A stretch of 64,000 nt of DNA from Botryllus schlosseri. Lineage: Eukaryota. The first letter of the stretch is position 1. Every line of letters starts with the position of its first letter. The stretch spans positions 12,278,001 through 12,342,000 of the forward strand of contig CM119372.1 in NCBI GenBank assembly GCA_051294905.1. The letters are read 5' to 3'. A model generated the notes under the pieces. That model did not search any database. It was given only the letters and a program-made list of their open reading frames with translations, and was not told where the DNA came from. The position numbers and the translations under genes are program-made. This document shows, in pieces, positions 44,697 through 58,860 of the stretch.

Positions 44697-45177
44697 CCCT
44701 AGAGACAAACTATGAAGTCGCTACTTTGAAGTATAATTTTACATTGCTCCAACTGCTTCAACTGGGGTTAATCAATGACCGCATCAGTTGACCATGCAGC
44801 TCTGCATGTGCGCATTATACATATACATCGTGCCTTACCACATTTTTCCATGATAATCAGATGAAAGCATATGAGCAGTGTTCCACTTGATGTTCATTTA
44901 TTCTAATCGCGCATTTGATAAATTAACGACGCATTCTGAAACGCAGATATCCTTCGAACCCATACTCATCTATGTCGACCAATCTCCGAATTACTGCATG
45001 GGCCACATTAAAAGGGTATATCGGGTAGACTATACTAAGGGTCGACGATGCAGAACCACCGCAAATTACCTGAACAGCTGCAGCCATCTCTGTTGTGGTC
45101 GTGGGCACACCACGACCTTCATCCAACGGGGAGGATGTGACTGTACCTTCCATTGGTGCTGTATTGTTACATGCGAG

Positions 45178-45599
45178 CAATGTTCCCTCTAATTTTTCAC
45201 GCGGCTGCGCGCACTCACCAACTCACTACGCGGTCCATTTGACGACCGTGCGTAGCATAGGGATCCGAAACAGAGGACAAAGTGTGGACTAAAAGAGGTC
45301 AACACAAAGGATTTACCCGCATTTTCCGGTGATGTGTGGTGTTGACTAAAAAAAAAGTCGTCACTTTGTCTCGACTCCAAAATTTGACTTTCGCTGCGTC
45401 GGAATCGAGTTTTTCGTCACATTTTACTATAATTTCTGAATTTTTACATCAAAAATGGTCGTCAGTTTGGTCTGATGATCATCAGTGCCTTCTGCGAAAG
45501 ATATAGTGATATTTTTTGTGCACGGCAAACATTTTTCTGTGCGCGGCGACTTTGTCGGCAGTGCGAAGCCGCATACGCGCGTAGTTTAGAGGGGCATTG
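45178..45599. mobile_element. hAT MITE inserted in the last Wnt exon
   Basis: TIR caatgttccctctaa / ttagaggggcattg; perfect 8-bp TSD catgcgag (45170-45177 / 45600-45607). Confidence 0.9.
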
Positions 45600-50333: not shown

Positions 50334-52284
50334 GACTAGAGAGAGTCGCCAAAGCGAGTGTTGTCTCCAGCCTGCCAATTGGAATCGGCATCTTTATAGC
50401 AGACATATATACAATTCCCATTGAAATGGGACTGTCAAGTATTTGTTATCCTGTACTGTTTATCATATTGGCGGAGAAAATATTATGATAATAAAAGGAG
50501 TCGTGGTGAGGAAAAGAGTTTGGGAGGCCATGATCTTGGATGCTCGATGTAAATTTTTACTAGCACACCCAACACGAATGACGGACTGGTCAGTAGTTAA
50601 CGGTACAAATCAATGTCCAAGAGCATATCGGAGAGCCCACAGTGACACGTTATGTTGCTACCTGTTAGAATGACAGATATACGTCACCTGATTTGAGTGC
50701 GAGTATATGTGATGATATCAGACAATACACAAACTGAAAAGCAAGCGAGCGTGGTATTATGTCATACACGAAACCGAACCGCACACGTCACACATTCTGT
50801 GCCGTCCGTAGTATACGCTTGCGAAACTATCCGAATAACTTCCCTATACACGAATTTCAATCAGCGCTTAGACTTAGACTTGATATCAATGCGATGTCTG
50901 TCTTTTCATACCTTACCGGTACACCGGCATAACACGGTATAAAACTAACGGACTGCATAAGCAAGTTGTAAATGATGAGAATTTATTCAAATTTCGGATT
51001 TCCATTATGGAACAATGCAGAAAATGTGTCTGTTTCTCTGTCACGTTAAGGATGAAGCATCAGGCAGTTTGCAAAAGCGCAGTAACAATCAATTACATCA
51101 ATATGGCGGAAATCTCTTTCCCAGAATAGCTGGCGGACTAAAAAAGAGGGCCGTCAAGTATATCCGGGCGATTTTGGCAACATTGAGCCGCAATCGGAAC
51201 GCGCGCAGCGAAACGGTAGTGAAGCCTCGAAGCCACGAAAGTTTAAGAAAATATCAAGCGATACTGGAATGTGAAACACGAGTATACATAAAGAAATACA
51301 TATATAGATTCATATACCCTTTCATGGGAAGCATATAGTTTATAATAATATGATTTATTAATTCCAAACTAAAATCTCATTGCTTCAAAGAATACCTTAA
51401 AGACGCGCGAAAAGTAGCAAAATGGTAACGGAAATACTTGTAATCTCTCGTGCTAATGACGGAAAGTGAGTAAATGGCACGGAACGCTGAGACATATTGA
51501 CAGTCGACAACTAACTCACAGAATTACATGTTTCGCCGGGCGAAACCTGTCGCATACCACCACATTTGATCCCGTTGAACCAGCGAGAGCCCGATCGAAG
51601 ATGTTACAAAGGCGGCAACAACGCAGATTCAACAAACCAAAAGTATCGATATATAGACAGAGCTATGAACACTATCCTCTGACATTGTGAATCATAGATC
51701 TAACCACTTTATCTATATAGTTGAATGCGACATAATTAGCTTTGCGAATCAGGGCTGCGTGGCGGACTTCAGCTGCGACCACAATTGCCCACAGTCATTG
51801 CAATACCGCGAATGCAAAGGCAATGGCATCCGCACTGAGGGCATACTCCATTTTGTATTTGCTATTAATAGGTACCGGTAGCGACAGATCGAAAGTACGA
51901 TACGAGATTCGCAAACACACTGCGTCGTTTCAGATGAAAGCAGCACAAACAAGCACGGACGGGCACGAAGATGCTATCGGCGATTACAGTAGTAAATCGC
52001 TAGGTCCGTGGTATACTGCGATGATATAATATATGGTGTCTTTGTACATTGTACATAGATTGCACAGTGAAAGCCGTCCCAAGTCGCTCGAATAGACCGT
52101 CACTGTCTAGAATGCACAGTGAAATGCCGCGACTTGCACGTACAGACCTTTGCCCCCATCTTTCAGCCACTCGGAAGACTCGACATGCATTCACTCCGAG
52201 ATAGAACGACTGCGAAATGTCGCAGTGTGCCGTCACACTCCAGTGACGACGTTTACAACAATGTTGAAGACTGTTGCCTGGTAA

Positions 52285-55200
52285 TCACGGATTTCCCGCC
52301 ATGTACGGGCTGTACTGAAGACGATTTAGTTTAGCAGATCCGCTGTTACTCGGTGACGAAGCAGGCGTGGTGTTGGTACTTTTCGGACCGAATGTGCCTG
52401 TGGCCGTTCGCGGTGCCCTCGGTCTGGCTTGGGGCCTCCGACTTCTAGCGCCGTCGGTACGAACCACTGTAAAATAAAACACCGCCATCATATAACTGTG
52501 TCCCAATGTTATATTACACCGTCGCGGCATATCATGTTACGTGAAATCGTATGCTACAGTCAACGCCGTCAACCGTCATGGATATTCGTAGCCTCGCGAT
52601 ATTATAGCTTCTAAGAGAGGAGAATAATTTGTCCGTCGCAGAATATATAAACCACTTTTATGAGATATCAAGTCAAGGCCTTCGGTGATATATATACTTT
52701 AGTCATTTCAGAAAGGTAGATTTCAAAGCGTGCCGAAGGCTACGCGGTTGCCGTTCGATATCGCATGATATGCCGTTAGGGGTGATTTGTCTGTCGAAAA
52801 TATTCCCTATGCAACACTTAAATCAAATGCGGCCGAGCGAGGAAGTTCATTTCGATGACGATCGTAATCTAGCCGTTAACTACGTGTACCTCTTTAACTG
52901 CGATTCTGTTTATACTTTATGACGTTTTCACACACCGATAGAGTAAGTTGTTATTCCCATTGACAGCAATAATCCGTAAATTACCGATGTCGCGCAGTAT
53001 AAGGTATAGTTTTGCGGCGACGTAGACATTAAATATAGTGGAACTATCTCGACGAGAAGGGCTGGTGCTTGTCGCGGATGCCTTCAAAAACCTCAACTTA
53101 CCATTTTTAATCATTCCTACGGCGATACACTTTTGGTAGCGGCAATACGGGCAGTGTGTTCTTGTCTTCTTATCGATGGGACAGTTCTTGTTGCCCAGGC
53201 AGACGTACTGCGCATTCTTTTGCACGGATCGCTGTGAAAAAGTACATACAAATGTTGAAGCTAGTAGATTTATCGAATATTTATAGCGCACGGTATATCC
53301 AGTCGCCCTGTCTCTTGTTGCTACCAAATAAATAAATGAGAGTGTCGTATACCTTGAAGAAACCTTTGCACCCTTCGCAAGCCAAGACGCCATAATGCTG
53401 CCATCTGGCTTTGTCGCCGCATACCGCACATGAGCCTTCTCCGAATCCACCGTAGCTCAGGTTTGTCGAACTGGATTGCACGGATCGCGAAGATACAGTC
53501 TGTAACGCAAGTTTCCCGTTAAATAAACCTTAATCTGAAAGGGCAATGTGCGCAGTTGACTATGTATAAAATAGATACGCCGGAAAGCGACGTCTCAGTG
53601 CGGAAATATACAAGAACCGCAGCTACCGGTATTGCCCGGCAAGCTCAAGTTACAGTCGGTTTGACGAGCGACTTGATGGCATGCATGAACTATAAACATA
53701 TCTACACGACGGACTTAGGTCGAAATTGCAATATCGCAGTGATCGCATCTAGAGTGAATTCATTTTACGGACACAGGTCGACCCGCATGTTAATCCGTAA
53801 TGAATTTCGCTATTATCCGTTACACATGTCAACAATTCCGTGGTAAGAGGGTGTAGAAATAATTCATCCACAATTTGCTGATAAATATTTGGTACAGTAA
53901 CGTATAGTAATATGAAAAAGGTACGACGTAGTACCGTGCCGTCCCTAACAGCATTCCGTTAACTCGCTGTATACTGTATACCTGGCCTAGGCTTCTAAAA
54001 TTTCCTGTCGCGCGCGAGCACATCTGATTGATCGTGTTGGGTTTAGCTTCCCGCCAAAAGTTTTTCATCGACTCGTAGCAATTTTCCGACTCGCCGCCGG
54101 TCACCTCAAACAGCCCAACCTCCTCGACCTGACCGCCGTCAACCTCGGACAACACCTCGGACATGGCGTGTCGGAAGTAGTTGGACTTCGCGTCGCTGTC
54201 TTCGCCGGCGTAGCGCATCGTCTCCGGTGCGTTCTGCGTTTGCAAGTGATCGATTTGCACTGCCGGGTTCGGTCTGTGGTCGAACACGTCTCCTGGATCT
54301 GATATTGAAGAATTTCGCTTTTCGTGAGATATGGTGACGTAGATGCGGTTCGTAGTGATCCCGTTCCTCTGACCGGCGCGATCCGACGGATGGACCCGGC
54401 TTTCGAGGTTTTCGATCTCTAACGAGTTGGACTTCACCAGCGCGCTGCGAGAAATTTTCACGGCCGCGCCGGCACTGTCGAAGCCAGCGAGCCCGTCGTG
54501 AGATATCAGAGTATGAGGCTTCCGGTAGAATTTGCGTCTCTTTCTCTGTTCTTTGGGCGGGAAATTGGACGCGATCCTGGGCGGAGCCGAGCGGAATATC
54601 TTACGCGCCTCCTGTCGATTTTCGAGTTTGATGTTTGAAGAGTCTTTTACGGTGCACAGTGAATGCGATACGGAATGAATCAGTGTTTTGTTTCGCAAGC
54701 TTCCGCGTGAGGTAGTGGGTCCGTGGTTTATAGCGGTAGAGTCCGTCTCCGGTTTGATCCGCAGAGATTCATAACGGGATTTCGAGCCTATCCGGAAAGC
54801 GTGCGAGTCGCTACTGATGGAATTCGACGGCGACATATCGTCCAGGTCAATGATTACATCCTCGCCGCCGTTTCCCGCCAAATCCGAATTGGGTGGATCC
54901 GCGGTCAGCGACAGCGGACTTTCGGGAGAACGATTCGATTCGCTGGACTGCCCGCTCGCTATTACGGACTGCCTCATCTGCGTCACGCCGTTCGGGAAAA
55001 AGTCTTCGATGTCCTGATTGCTGTCGAAGTAAGTCGATATTGCGTTGTGCGACAGAGATTTTGAATGGACTGAGTGCTGAGTGTTTTGGATTAGTTCTTC
55101 GTAATGAGACGCAGACTCGTATTTGTCTTCGTAGTCAAAATTTGTACGCTGGCCGCCGTAATACGGCTCGGGAGTGGCGGGTGAAGAGTTGTAGTGCTGG

Positions 55201-57806
55201 TAACATTTTCCGTTGAATAACAACGGGTTGTCGTCTTCAGGAGACGTAAAATCGGAAGGAATGGGGTATTGCTGATCGGAGTGTTTCAAAATCTGCGAGG
55301 GCGGGGTGGCAGACGGGGCTGGGTCATTTTTAGCCAGATTCCACTGCGGCCGGATACCAGGTGCGGCCAGGCTGACATCTCGCGCATGGCGGTGCAACCT
55401 TCTGCTGTAACAGCTGTTGGGGTCCACACCGTGCCCGTTTAGGTCGGGCATGAGTCGCACGCCGGCACCATCTGAATAGGCTACCGAACGGATGACAGCA
55501 TTCGGACTGCCGCGTTCTAGACGCACTTCCCTGTCCAAAGGACCGACGATGTGTCGCTCAAACATGGAATCCGATACCCCGAGCTCGACAGGGTCCATAC
55601 CGAGTATTTCCATAGGCATTGCGTAATCACTACCGAATCGGGAAATACTCTCTTTCTGTAAGACATCGGGCGAAAGCGCCCTGCCAGAGTTGAAGCCGTA
55701 GTTAGGGACGAACACCGGCGGTGAGCCATCATTGCTTGCGGCTCGCGTGAAATAGAGTCGGCTCATGGCTTGTCACATGCGATCGACTCTCTCTAGCATA
55801 CGGCATTCTTCAATTTTCCAATCAGAGAATTCTCATCTATAGTCTAATCGTCTTTCTACAAACGAACATTATAATGTATATGTCATGATATTTAGGGTAA
55901 TCTGCGCGCCTGTGGAAGTTATGAAAATCTACACGCATTTGAAACCTGCACTTCGCCGTGACACGCGCAGACTTCCACAAAAATCTTGCACGAAAAGAGA
56001 TTTTCTCTCAATTTCGTAACGATCAAATTCCTCAAGATTTCGCTGGTAATGAACATTCGCTTTGATTTTCGACTGTCTACTACAGACCTACTAACTGCAA
56101 TAGTGTTTGCAACGTATTCATGGCACTTCGTCAGTTGCACATGAGTAATATACCCTAAAATCGCAGACGTATAGCACCACGGTTCGTTTATGCCTCCATG
56201 TCCGAAGCCGGTATGATATCGTGTAAGACGCTTCGCCTGGACTGCTGATTATGAAGGAATTACGCCCCAGGCACGCTGCTCAGTCGACCGTATTGCATTA
56301 TTCTTCACCAGACAGTCCAGTTTTTCACGTTCAAGTTGGCAATATACGGGAGGTATGCGGAGCTATTTTACGATTTTAAAGTTGCAATAAAATGCATTGC
56401 TCTATGGTGCAAATGAATATAGTAACATTTCTCACCTGTCGCGGCACCTGTCCTGATAGTTGGCCCGGATTGCCGAACATCTGATGTTGCACCCCCGACG
56501 TCTGCAAACCTGCCGTTGGTGGGGTTGAAGATAACCCCGATTCACTCCAATGACTCAAGGTAGGAAAACTTGCGACTTTTCTCCTACTGTAGTTACTATC
56601 CGGTGTCATGTTGCAGCTATCAGTCACTTGGCAGTGATGCGTCTTTGGAAAGTCGTAACCGACATTCTGGTATCCATGAATGGTCTCGCTGTTCGGGACC
56701 TTGTTAATGGAGGAGAATTCGTTCGTGGTAGGAAAGTCTCTCATCAAGAATTCTCCCGCATGGGAGTACTCCGGCACGGCCTGCTGAAGCGGCTGTGGTT
56801 GATAGAAGGAGACAGCCGAGGGAAACTGTTCGGACGCACCGCCTTGCGGATACGACTGCCCGCAATAATTGTTCGTCTGGTGGAATCCGGTCGGAATAAA
56901 GTTGTAGGATCCTGCACGAAAACAACATCGGCTTTTATAACGTTGTAACGTCGCCTGGTAAATATATATAGTTATATACGTACCCTCTGTGTCTCGCGTC
57001 ATGGCTGCAATAGGAGTTGTTTCGTGGAAGTCATTCCTTTCGATATGCATTGCAGGTGATGTGTTTATCATAGCATTCCAAGACGCCTCGTCCCAACTTG
57101 AACTATGGTGACCAATATTGACATCTGACGCGCTAAAACTGTTGTGTCGACTCCACTGCATGTTGGAAGTACTTTGTGGTGATGGGGTATCCTGGCTTCT
57201 AAGCTCTTGTTCGGTGAGTTGCGGAAGGCTGGCGCGCCGTTGGATATTATCTACCATGGCAGACGTAAAGCGAGAGTCAGTGATAACATTCGAGGACATG
57301 GACGATGTCAGAGACGAGTCTGCGTTAAACGAGGTTAAGTCCAACGACGGAGCACAAATAAGTTCCTGCATAATTTGATTTTCCGATATCTCCGGGCTTG
57401 CGAAAGGAATTTGACTGTGCTTGGTACGCAATGGAGACGAATCCATAGACGATTGAGAAGATTGAAGTCCGTAAGAGCCCTCGCACGCTGCAGTCCGTGG
57501 CGAATCGCTGGGTCCGTACAGCTCCGATAGAATATCTTCCGCGTCGACTGCCGAGCTTTCTTCCCACCAGTTGATGCCAAACGCTTCAAAATCCAACGAC
57601 TGCGTCTTTGGAAAAGAGGCGACAACCACGTTACTGTTAGGCCCGACGACCGATTCGCTGCGGTCAAAGCCGGCCGCTCTGGCGTCATAGTGGGACGAGT
57701 GATTCAAGATAGTATTGTTCGGTTCTTTATTGTCGGCGGTCAAACTCATCATAACAGGACGGGACAGTGCGGTTTGGTGCTGCATCATAAGTGCGCTCGA
57801 GCACAT
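52285..57806 (-). CDS. NR4A: NR4A-like (Nur77/Nurr1/HR38 group) nuclear receptor, isoform A, with no ligand-binding domain visible
   Basis: Exons 57806-56984, 56911-56436, 53499-53353, 53231-53102, 52466-52285 (TGA), phase-consistent. [100 protein letters not shown] and VVRTD are NR4A signatures. Confidence 0.85.
53982..55766 (-). CDS. alternative 595-codon N-terminal coding exon (isoform B) of the NR4A-like gene
   Basis: Uninterrupted GC-richer ORF from gccATG at 55766 (in-frame TGA just upstream) to the phase-0 donor CAG|gtatac at 53982, matching the phase-0 acceptor of the first zinc-finger exon (53499); candidate acceptor tttgtag at ~55856. Confidence 0.75.
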
Positions 57807-58437
57807 GTCCTGCCGCAACAAAAACGAAACGAAGAACGTATAAGATGAATGTAAAAGGCGAAATAAAGGACAGGGCTGCGTGCAAAAACAACTATACATG
57901 AAACACTCAAGCGGTGATAAATAGAACTGAAAATTTCCGCGATTTCGAATTCGGCATGCAAGGACCCTCACATCTTCACTCATACATACAAACTTGATAG
58001 AGTTTCATTCATATTGCTGGAAATAATTTACATGTGGCAAGGTTAACCACGTATACTAATTATCATAAGAAGATAACGAAGAAATACAAAAGGAATATTT
58101 AATTTAACCCAATGTTAATTAATGATATTCCGAGTAGGTTGCAACGTCGCAAGAATATAGTTGATGTACGGTACCACGGAAGATGCATAAATACATTATG
58201 CGATAATGCCCGATAATCTTTTCATGCGTGTTGCTCTCAGGATATATATATTATATGTTTCGGGAGGGATGGAATTCTCCGCCTGCTGTCCAGATGACTT
58301 TTAAATGCAGATTTGACTAACAACCGGGCACGACTAACTGAAGACTTTGACGGGCTTATCAACTATCTTATAACGTGGGACGTAATATCGAATGTACGCC
58401 TATGCTTCAACAGTGCGTAATAAAATGCAATGCTTAC

Positions 58438-58860
58438 TTCTGTTGTGTATTGTAGCTGAAAGAAGTAAGATTGTAATCCCTTCCGTAATCCTTGACGACA
58501 ATAAAGTAGTGTAGATGCGAGAGAACGTTGAATACTCTTCCTCAGTTAGCTGCAGATATACCTTCGTACAAATTCTATCTCATCCGGGTATAGTGCCGCA
58601 GGCGTTATCCCGTCTGTGGAATGTGAGAGAATCCCTGATTTATATATCAGCGTCAAAAATTCCTGCAGTGCGTAGCACTCTCGAAACCCAAGAAAAAATG
58701 GTGCGTTGCGTCGTCGACGTCAACGCAAACAAAGAGTCCTTCCGCGTCTCGGGAAGAGAGCTGTACGTAAAGTACGTTCTATTTTTGCGTTAGAATGTGA
58801 CGACGTCGGATATAGCTGCTACTATAAATAAAGAGAAAAGCAAATTGCGTCATATGCAGC
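58438..58860 (-). promoter_or_regulatory. putative NR4A-like promoter and non-coding first exon
   Basis: TATATAAAT (minus) 58647-58639; CRE half-sites TGACG/CGTCA at 58651, 58718, 58798, 58848; MEF2-type CTATAAATAA 58822-58831; donor AA|gtaagc at 58438. Confidence 0.55.

Follow-up and report, generated by a model that had tools for sequence, protein, structure and literature searches.

The question raised by this locus is how a single pair of zinc fingers comes to lie downstream of two very long and mutually dissimilar N-terminal regions. The locus is a minus-strand nuclear-receptor gene in a 64,000-nt window of the Botryllus schlosseri genome (assembly GCA_051294905.1, contig CM119372.1, positions 12,278,001 to 12,342,000; the window is this whole stretch, and positions are counted from its first letter). 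A sequence-only reading had proposed that the two regions, here called heads A and B, are alternative N-termini of one receptor, which would exchange whole activation regions in place of regulation through a ligand-binding domain (LBD). In the reading preferred here, to which a probability of roughly 0.7 is given, the gene is an NR4A duplicate without an LBD, found across tunicates, whose mutually exclusive first coding exons give rise to at least three proteins (A, a shorter form A' and B). Judged on the sequences, the swapping of activation regions between heads is plausible.

Every site named in the sequence-only reading was confirmed at its coordinates, including the separate ATG of B with an in-frame stop upstream. 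The donors of A and B are both phase 0 and in frame with the acceptor of the DNA-binding domain (DBD) at 53499 (TVSSRSVQ...CEGCKGFFK). The A head, estimated earlier at about 430 residues, has 433 aa once an RNA-verified 72-nt intron (56983-56912) is removed, giving an A protein of 585 aa in total. Its description as Ser/Gln-rich was correct for Ser (16%) but not for Gln (only 7%). With B the predicted protein has 747 aa. The B frame spans 647 codons from stop to stop while the other five frames contain 17-29 stops, and a length of 595 codons was reached in none of 1000 order-1 and none of 1000 order-2 Markov simulations (maxima 346 and 536), so the frame is beyond chance. The B donor is the sole [A/C]AG-GT[A/G] in this 1938-nt frame, and its positions +1 to +6 are the same as those of the RNA-verified donor at 53353. 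As had been claimed, A and B showed no likeness to each other (BLASTP best E 0.42; profile-profile probability 0.13%). Neither head matched a Pfam family, and the 495-Mb genome contains a single copy of each, for B at both the protein and the DNA level.

The gene is an NR4A paralog that has lost the entire LBD. PF00105, the C4 double zinc-finger DBD, was matched in both DBD exons, and the best PDB matches, obtained with the Styela ortholog as query, were NR4A2 and NR4A1 (E 3e-39 to 3e-36; next family 1e-29). A canonical NR4A with the RGRLP A-box and an LBD is present in the same genome (locus L027, G000:C5:7271700-7275480); compared by eye with human NR4A2, it shows only about three differences in the DBD and its extension. 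The DBD of the window gene is identical to that of the canonical copy at 50 of 66 core residues, and the two genes have in common both DBD intron positions and phases and a 130-nt second exon. The tree was built from 21 DBD rows of this genome and its relatives, leaving out P0015, P0021, P0022 and P0024 (redundant or long branches), P0023, P0025 and fragments. Twelve of the 21 rows share the DBD signature of an LBD-less group, are without an LBD and form one clade (99/97), sister to canonical NR4A (99/98); the window gene thus groups with NR4A in a tree holding zero NR0A sequences. Its nearest named relative is Styela clava, with a 93% identical DBD, which makes a stolidobranch ascidian the most likely host.

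The earlier description of an LBD-less receptor was borne out. None of the 25 PF00104 matches in the genome is close to the locus, and LBD pieces from C5 gave zero tblastn matches in the window, one of them finding an RXR-like control at E 1e-6. RNA is continuous, leading from the last coding exon (stop 52285) into a 1.3-kb untranslated region (UTR) and on to poly(A), with no LBD exon. In all 13 DBD-bearing relatives scanned, zf-C4 was the only domain and an LBD was missing. The RGRLP A-box is lost in the window gene and in every ortholog aligned, and is kept in the canonical copy on C5. The sequence-only reading of the gene was supported in part, and it had overlooked the NR4A origin, the loss of this box and the A' form. 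Two candidate origins of the heads were rejected: descent of A or B from the canonical NR4A head and an ancient tandem duplication giving A and B both received zero profile support, with weak profiles of 1-4 sequences.

RNA evidence was taken from four of the 24 listed runs (X1, X2, X21 and X23), X1 and X2 being presumed RNA and X2 showing spliced joints. In run X2 the non-coding first exon was joined to A at 58438>57809 (depth 14) and to an acceptor inside A at 58438>57605 (depth 6.3), each with sides of just 30-31 nt. The same run contained the 72-nt A intron, the A-to-DBD joint 56436>53499 at depth 28.3, and both DBD introns. Since run X2 shows their splice joints, A (585 aa) and A' (465 aa) are real, support for the two exon-1 joints coming from short sides. 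In A' the first long frame starts from Met121 and is without the acidic-aromatic motif. Other shorter A forms without this acidic stretch are Styela isoform X3, which begins at residue 113 of isoform X2, and Clavelina X3, in which it is removed by an internal 64-residue gap.

Head B was assessed by its conservation. A search with the B protein gave two matches among 8000 scored candidates, at 46-47% identity, and a profile of four B sequences gave five matches among 1.84 billion proteins, all B-like; an Atlas search with B returned zero matches at 0.8 or above. The likeness ends at Q-V in P0001, P0002, P0040 and P0042 and at K-V in P0041, which is the reading of the splice donor. Past the donor position P0001, P0002 and P0040-P0042 have unrelated tails of 4-13 aa, compared with 50 aa here, and the conservation of B is strongest just before the donor at 53982 and stops there.

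Searching with the DBD identified 23 proteins among 157 candidates. Ten had species names, covering Styela, Clavelina, Ciona intestinalis, C. savignyi, Phallusia and Oikopleura, together with one weak nematode match of another kind. Styela LOC120341980 isoform X1 (746 aa) aligns with B across its entire 595 residues (27%, E 2e-39), its junction with the DBD falling at the same Gln, and isoform X2 (624 aa) is a homolog of A (30%, E 8e-31). In the annotations of Styela, Clavelina and C. intestinalis, which represent the three ascidian orders, each gene has two unrelated N-termini; the two part at a Gln that precedes CEGC by 48-56 residues (50 in Clavelina, 56 in C. intestinalis). The B heads of the three orders are homologous (profile probabilities 97.4% and 99.2%). 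A B-type head is joined to the DBD in five named ascidians (Styela, Clavelina, two Ciona species and Phallusia), with the B type alone retrieved for C. savignyi and Phallusia; the head of Oikopleura is Gln-rich and matches neither A nor B. We take the NP_ and BAE accessions of the Ciona B form to be cDNA-based records and the XP_ forms to be predictions. In four proteins a single frame contains both a DV[S/N]LAA motif of the B type and a DBD without interruption, which implies spliced or intronless sources; their profile scores are weak. Some members of the LBD-less group evolve faster and have very short tails; of these, P0019, P0020, P0022 and P0026 keep the B-like motif, while P0021 and P0024 are without it. 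By sequence comparison, B is an old and conserved first coding exon that does not stem from a transposable element. The B isoform is almost certainly real in the tunicate family of this gene and very probably so in B. schlosseri.

The AlphaFold model of B (mean pLDDT 41.7) contains no overall fold and is disordered except for three helices at 524-587. Across ten sequences H125, D130, V131, L133, A134, W142, P156, R484 and S486 are invariant. The deepest conserved motif, HRHA[R/Q]DVSLAA..W, is basic/hydrophobic and not of the acidic activator type. One [R/K]RxS site lies at the same place in each of the eight B heads scanned, and RRASLP is present in stolidobranch A heads; these are presumably sites of the basophilic kinase and 14-3-3 type. 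Acidic-aromatic stretches and Phe/Trp amphipathic helices are typical of activation domains. Of the two heads, A alone has a clear, conserved acidic-aromatic motif, kept in P0003 and Styela, and B has a Phe/Trp amphipathic helix at 563-572 following an acidic run. A basic stretch in B (407-416) resembling a nuclear localization signal is present as described earlier, but its conservation is limited to the two nearest relatives, and it is unnecessary for explaining nuclear entry.

In the proposed mechanism A, A' and B would share the two zinc fingers and a short tail and differ in the long, disordered head that precedes them. The DBD would still read AGGTCA half sites, which are likely targets because the P-box is unchanged. 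In NR4A the RGRLP A-box serves monomeric binding to the NGFI-B response element (NBRE), and the reading of the NBRE flank has a phospho-switch; with this box gone, 5' flank reading and its switch should differ from NR4A. The contact of NR4A with RXR is LBD-driven according to the accessible part of PMC11956975, so that RXR dimerization should be lost together with the LBD. Output would then be set by the choice of head and by phosphorylation at the RRxS sites. A would most likely be an inducible activator driven from a promoter of the cAMP response element (CRE)/TATA type, and A' may be a weaker or competing form. B would be separately regulated, docking partners through its conserved motif; it could also repress, and its splicing to the DBD would occur at stages or in tissues outside those sampled. 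The 5' end of B may come from the shared exon, from a promoter of its own or from a spliced leader. CRE-like palindromes and a TATA box are present upstream, similar to the NR4A2 promoter, which is described as CRE/TATA type in the portion of PMC12471074 available to us. The enrichment is weak, since CRE half sites occur at 2.2 per kb across the window and one other region has more (6).

Alternatively, the protein might be mainly a knirps-like competitor for DNA sites, repressing canonical NR4A and other AGGTCA receptors, with the heads setting stability, location or corepressor binding rather than activation. It has neither an LBD nor an AF-2 and its P-box is intact, the invariant residues of B form a basic/hydrophobic motif and one RxxS site, and A' drops the acidic motif, all of which would suit such a role. 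The retained acidic-aromatic stretch of A and the amphipathic helix of B nevertheless point to activation, as does the AF-1 carried by NR4A heads (PMC12471074, in the part available), and this role is considered the less likely one.

Several observations weigh against the three-protein reading. Neither the joint of B to the DBD (53982>53499) nor that of exon 1 to B (into 55855) was seen in any of the four runs; the suggestion that both head acceptors could take the non-coding exon, and that both donors feed the acceptor at 53499, was thus verified for A but not for B. Contigs from X1 (53353-54404) and X2 (53852-54889) cross the B donor unspliced, and X2 depth over B is 2-8, the level of an intron, versus 28 at the A-to-DBD joint. 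Three of the four read differences in B are non-synonymous, a ratio that is the same in A. If B were spliced from the shared exon, four upstream ATGs would precede it, and the RRxSLP site is degenerate in this B (KRNSSI). Outside this genome, the RefSeq XP isoforms are predictions, the gene's restriction to tunicates was judged from a word-limited search, and the Ciona protein leads in the Atlas to DBD-only clusters, one of them mainly arthropod. The tree has no outgroup (non-tunicate) NR4A, which leaves the duplication undated. The A heads have no detectable homology across orders (at most 0.18%). As B is homologous across the orders and A is not, B is the conserved head, and A is fast-evolving or repeatedly gained. 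A fuller scenario is tentative: early tunicates would have converted an NR4A duplicate into an LBD-free factor governed by an exon switch, retained in all three ascidian orders, with an ancestral, motif-conserved B head (probably for a developmental program), a fast-evolving A head acting as a stimulus-induced activator, and a recurrent form, A', from which the activation motif is missing.

The blank at the B donor could also mean that the joining of B to the DBD has ceased or become rare in this species, B being translated without a DBD from RNA that retains the intron, or persisting as a decaying remnant of the ancestral B isoform. The read-through contigs, the upstream ATGs, one of them overlapping the start out of frame, and the non-synonymous differences would fit this, and the records P0001, P0002 and P0040-P0042 are likewise unspliced at the donor. 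Conservation that peaks before the donor and ends there is, however, hard to reconcile with it. The tails of 4-50 aa are unrelated, and a read difference creates a stop within the 50-aa tail here. The B frame is intact and free of indels, all seven listed indels falling in the 3' UTR. Moreover, the blank has limited weight, because X1 lacks even the A-to-DBD joint, X23 has 12 reads and X21 is 3'-biased, leaving X2 as the only informative run; it speaks against B being common in the sampled material. An unjoined B is regarded as improbable. An origin of B from a transposon or an unrelated nested gene, for which its lack of a Pfam family and its GC content above the flanks might be cited, is refuted by the five named species in which a B homolog is fused to this DBD and has a negligible probability, B being moreover single copy, with no terminal repeats found and only B-like proteins among its profile matches.

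Positions of the features of the receptor gene, in window coordinates (hyphens in donor sequences mark the splice site)
Feature	Position	Strand	Evidence or detail
Two near-palindromic CRE-like sites (58715, 58801)	58715..58808	-	among four CRE half sites within the 300 bp preceding the TATA box
TATA box TATATAAA	58639..58646	-	RNA depth starts in the same bin
Shared non-coding first exon (5' end approximate)	58438..58640	-	run X2 joints 58438>57809 and 58438>57605
Exon A1: ATG 57806; acidic-aromatic motif, residues 72-101 (57593-57504); RRASLP at 190	56984..57809	-	acceptor AG ends 57810; 44% identity to P0003, 30% to Styela isoform X2
Internal acceptor inside A1, giving A'	57605..57607	-	run X2 joint 58438>57605
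Exon A2, phase-0 donor CAG-GTGAGA after 56436	56436..56911	-	run X2 joints 56984>56911 and 56436>53499
Exon B: ATG 55766, with a TGA in frame two codons before it; 595 codons up to donor CAG-GTATAC after 53982; predicted mostly disordered; conserved motif 55403-55362; helices 524-587	53982..55855	-	acceptor AG ends 55856; conservation; B-to-DBD joint unseen in RNA
DBD exon 1: first zinc finger, P-box EGCKG	53353..53499	-	PF00105 and RNA joints
DBD exon 2: second zinc finger; 130 nt, the canonical NR4A length	53102..53231	-	PF00105 and RNA joints
Last exon: VVRTD T-box, without RGRLP A-box or LBD; stop 52287-52285; 3' UTR about 1.3 kb	50962..52466	-	AATAAA 50987-50982; poly(A) near 50962

The upstream ATGs sit in the 89-nt B leader (55855-55767) and in the shared exon, and the frame overlapping the B start has 25 codons. 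Where the TGA precedes B in this genome, one relative is instead extended in frame by 11 residues, and translational control is possible. Just upstream of exon B (56044-56204), eight X23 reads with two starts skip 121 nt with GT..AG on the plus strand, and their loose end at 56204 had zero matches in the genome; they may represent antisense spliced RNA, another allele or an artifact. A 16-nt element (15/16 identical) occurs at 56386-56401 and 58419-58434, inside the introns that follow the A and non-coding exon donors, and is missing after the B donor. It could be a splice enhancer or due to chance. The last coding exon of a Wnt gene (PF00110) lies at 44875-45192 on the plus strand, convergent with the receptor gene. 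Elsewhere in the genome there are about ten PPAR-like receptors, some in tandem (loci L005, L008-L011, L013, L015, L017, L018 and L021, on C2, C3, C12, C13 and C15). Six of these loci have DBD and LBD in one open, intronless frame of 504-654 codons, and the best match of L013 is PPAR-gamma (E 2e-75). L003 (G000:C14:8393829-8396942), which we take to be RXR-like, has DBD and LBD in a single intronless frame of 550 codons.

Compared with known systems, the gene resembles NR4A (NGFI-B/Nur77, Nurr1, NOR-1; HR38) in its DBD, P-box, VVRTD T-box, DBD introns and CRE/TATA-like promoter. Unlike NR4A, it has KKTRTHC and another family-specific stretch and an extra intron upstream of finger 1, and its heads are unrelated to the canonical head. 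Its orthologs, with the same DBD signature and no LBD, are Phallusia CAB3264439.1 ('NR-like nuclear receptor'), Ciona NP_001071780.1, BAE06595.1 and FAA00109.1 (named 'nuclear receptor'), Styela LOC120341980 and Clavelina LOC143468248. The isoform switch point is common to these tunicate genes and the window gene, which is the member of the group here. Different N-termini on one DBD, from mutually exclusive first coding exons, are familiar from EcR-A/B1/B2, PR-A/B, TR-beta1/2 and ROR-gamma/gamma-t. These A/B-domain isoforms keep the LBD and swap a minority of the protein, whereas in the window gene the exchanged head makes up 74-80% of the protein and is its sole effector region. NR0A receptors (knirps, knirps-related, eagle, ODR-7) also have a DBD without an LBD, but the window gene derives from NR4A and has its long head N-terminal to the DBD. 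NR0A was lost in chordates and Ciona has 17 receptors, as stated in the accessible part of a receptor survey (PMC7827873), so the LBD loss here would be independent; that part of the survey does not mention the window gene.

LBD-less receptors, alternative N-termini, the orthologs and both isoform types are already known or annotated (RefSeq). A literature search found no description of this gene or of its isoform switch, subscription ascidian receptor catalogs and supplements being outside its reach. The combination seen here is a DBD-only NR4A paralog in tunicates, the vertebrates' sister group, whose two unrelated heads of 430-600 aa are conserved as a pair. NR4A is up in tunicate dormancy (10.1101/2022.02.09.477513, in the part available), and matches to 'NR4A' in tunicate transcriptomes may mix two genes. 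The gene offers a natural experiment in NR4A function without an LBD and in the evolution of disordered activation regions, B keeping short motifs across orders and A not. As Ciona has both forms and is easily electroporated, the question is directly testable. If the exon-switch reading is true, this would be a chordate case in which a whole regulatory domain is replaced by isoform choice.

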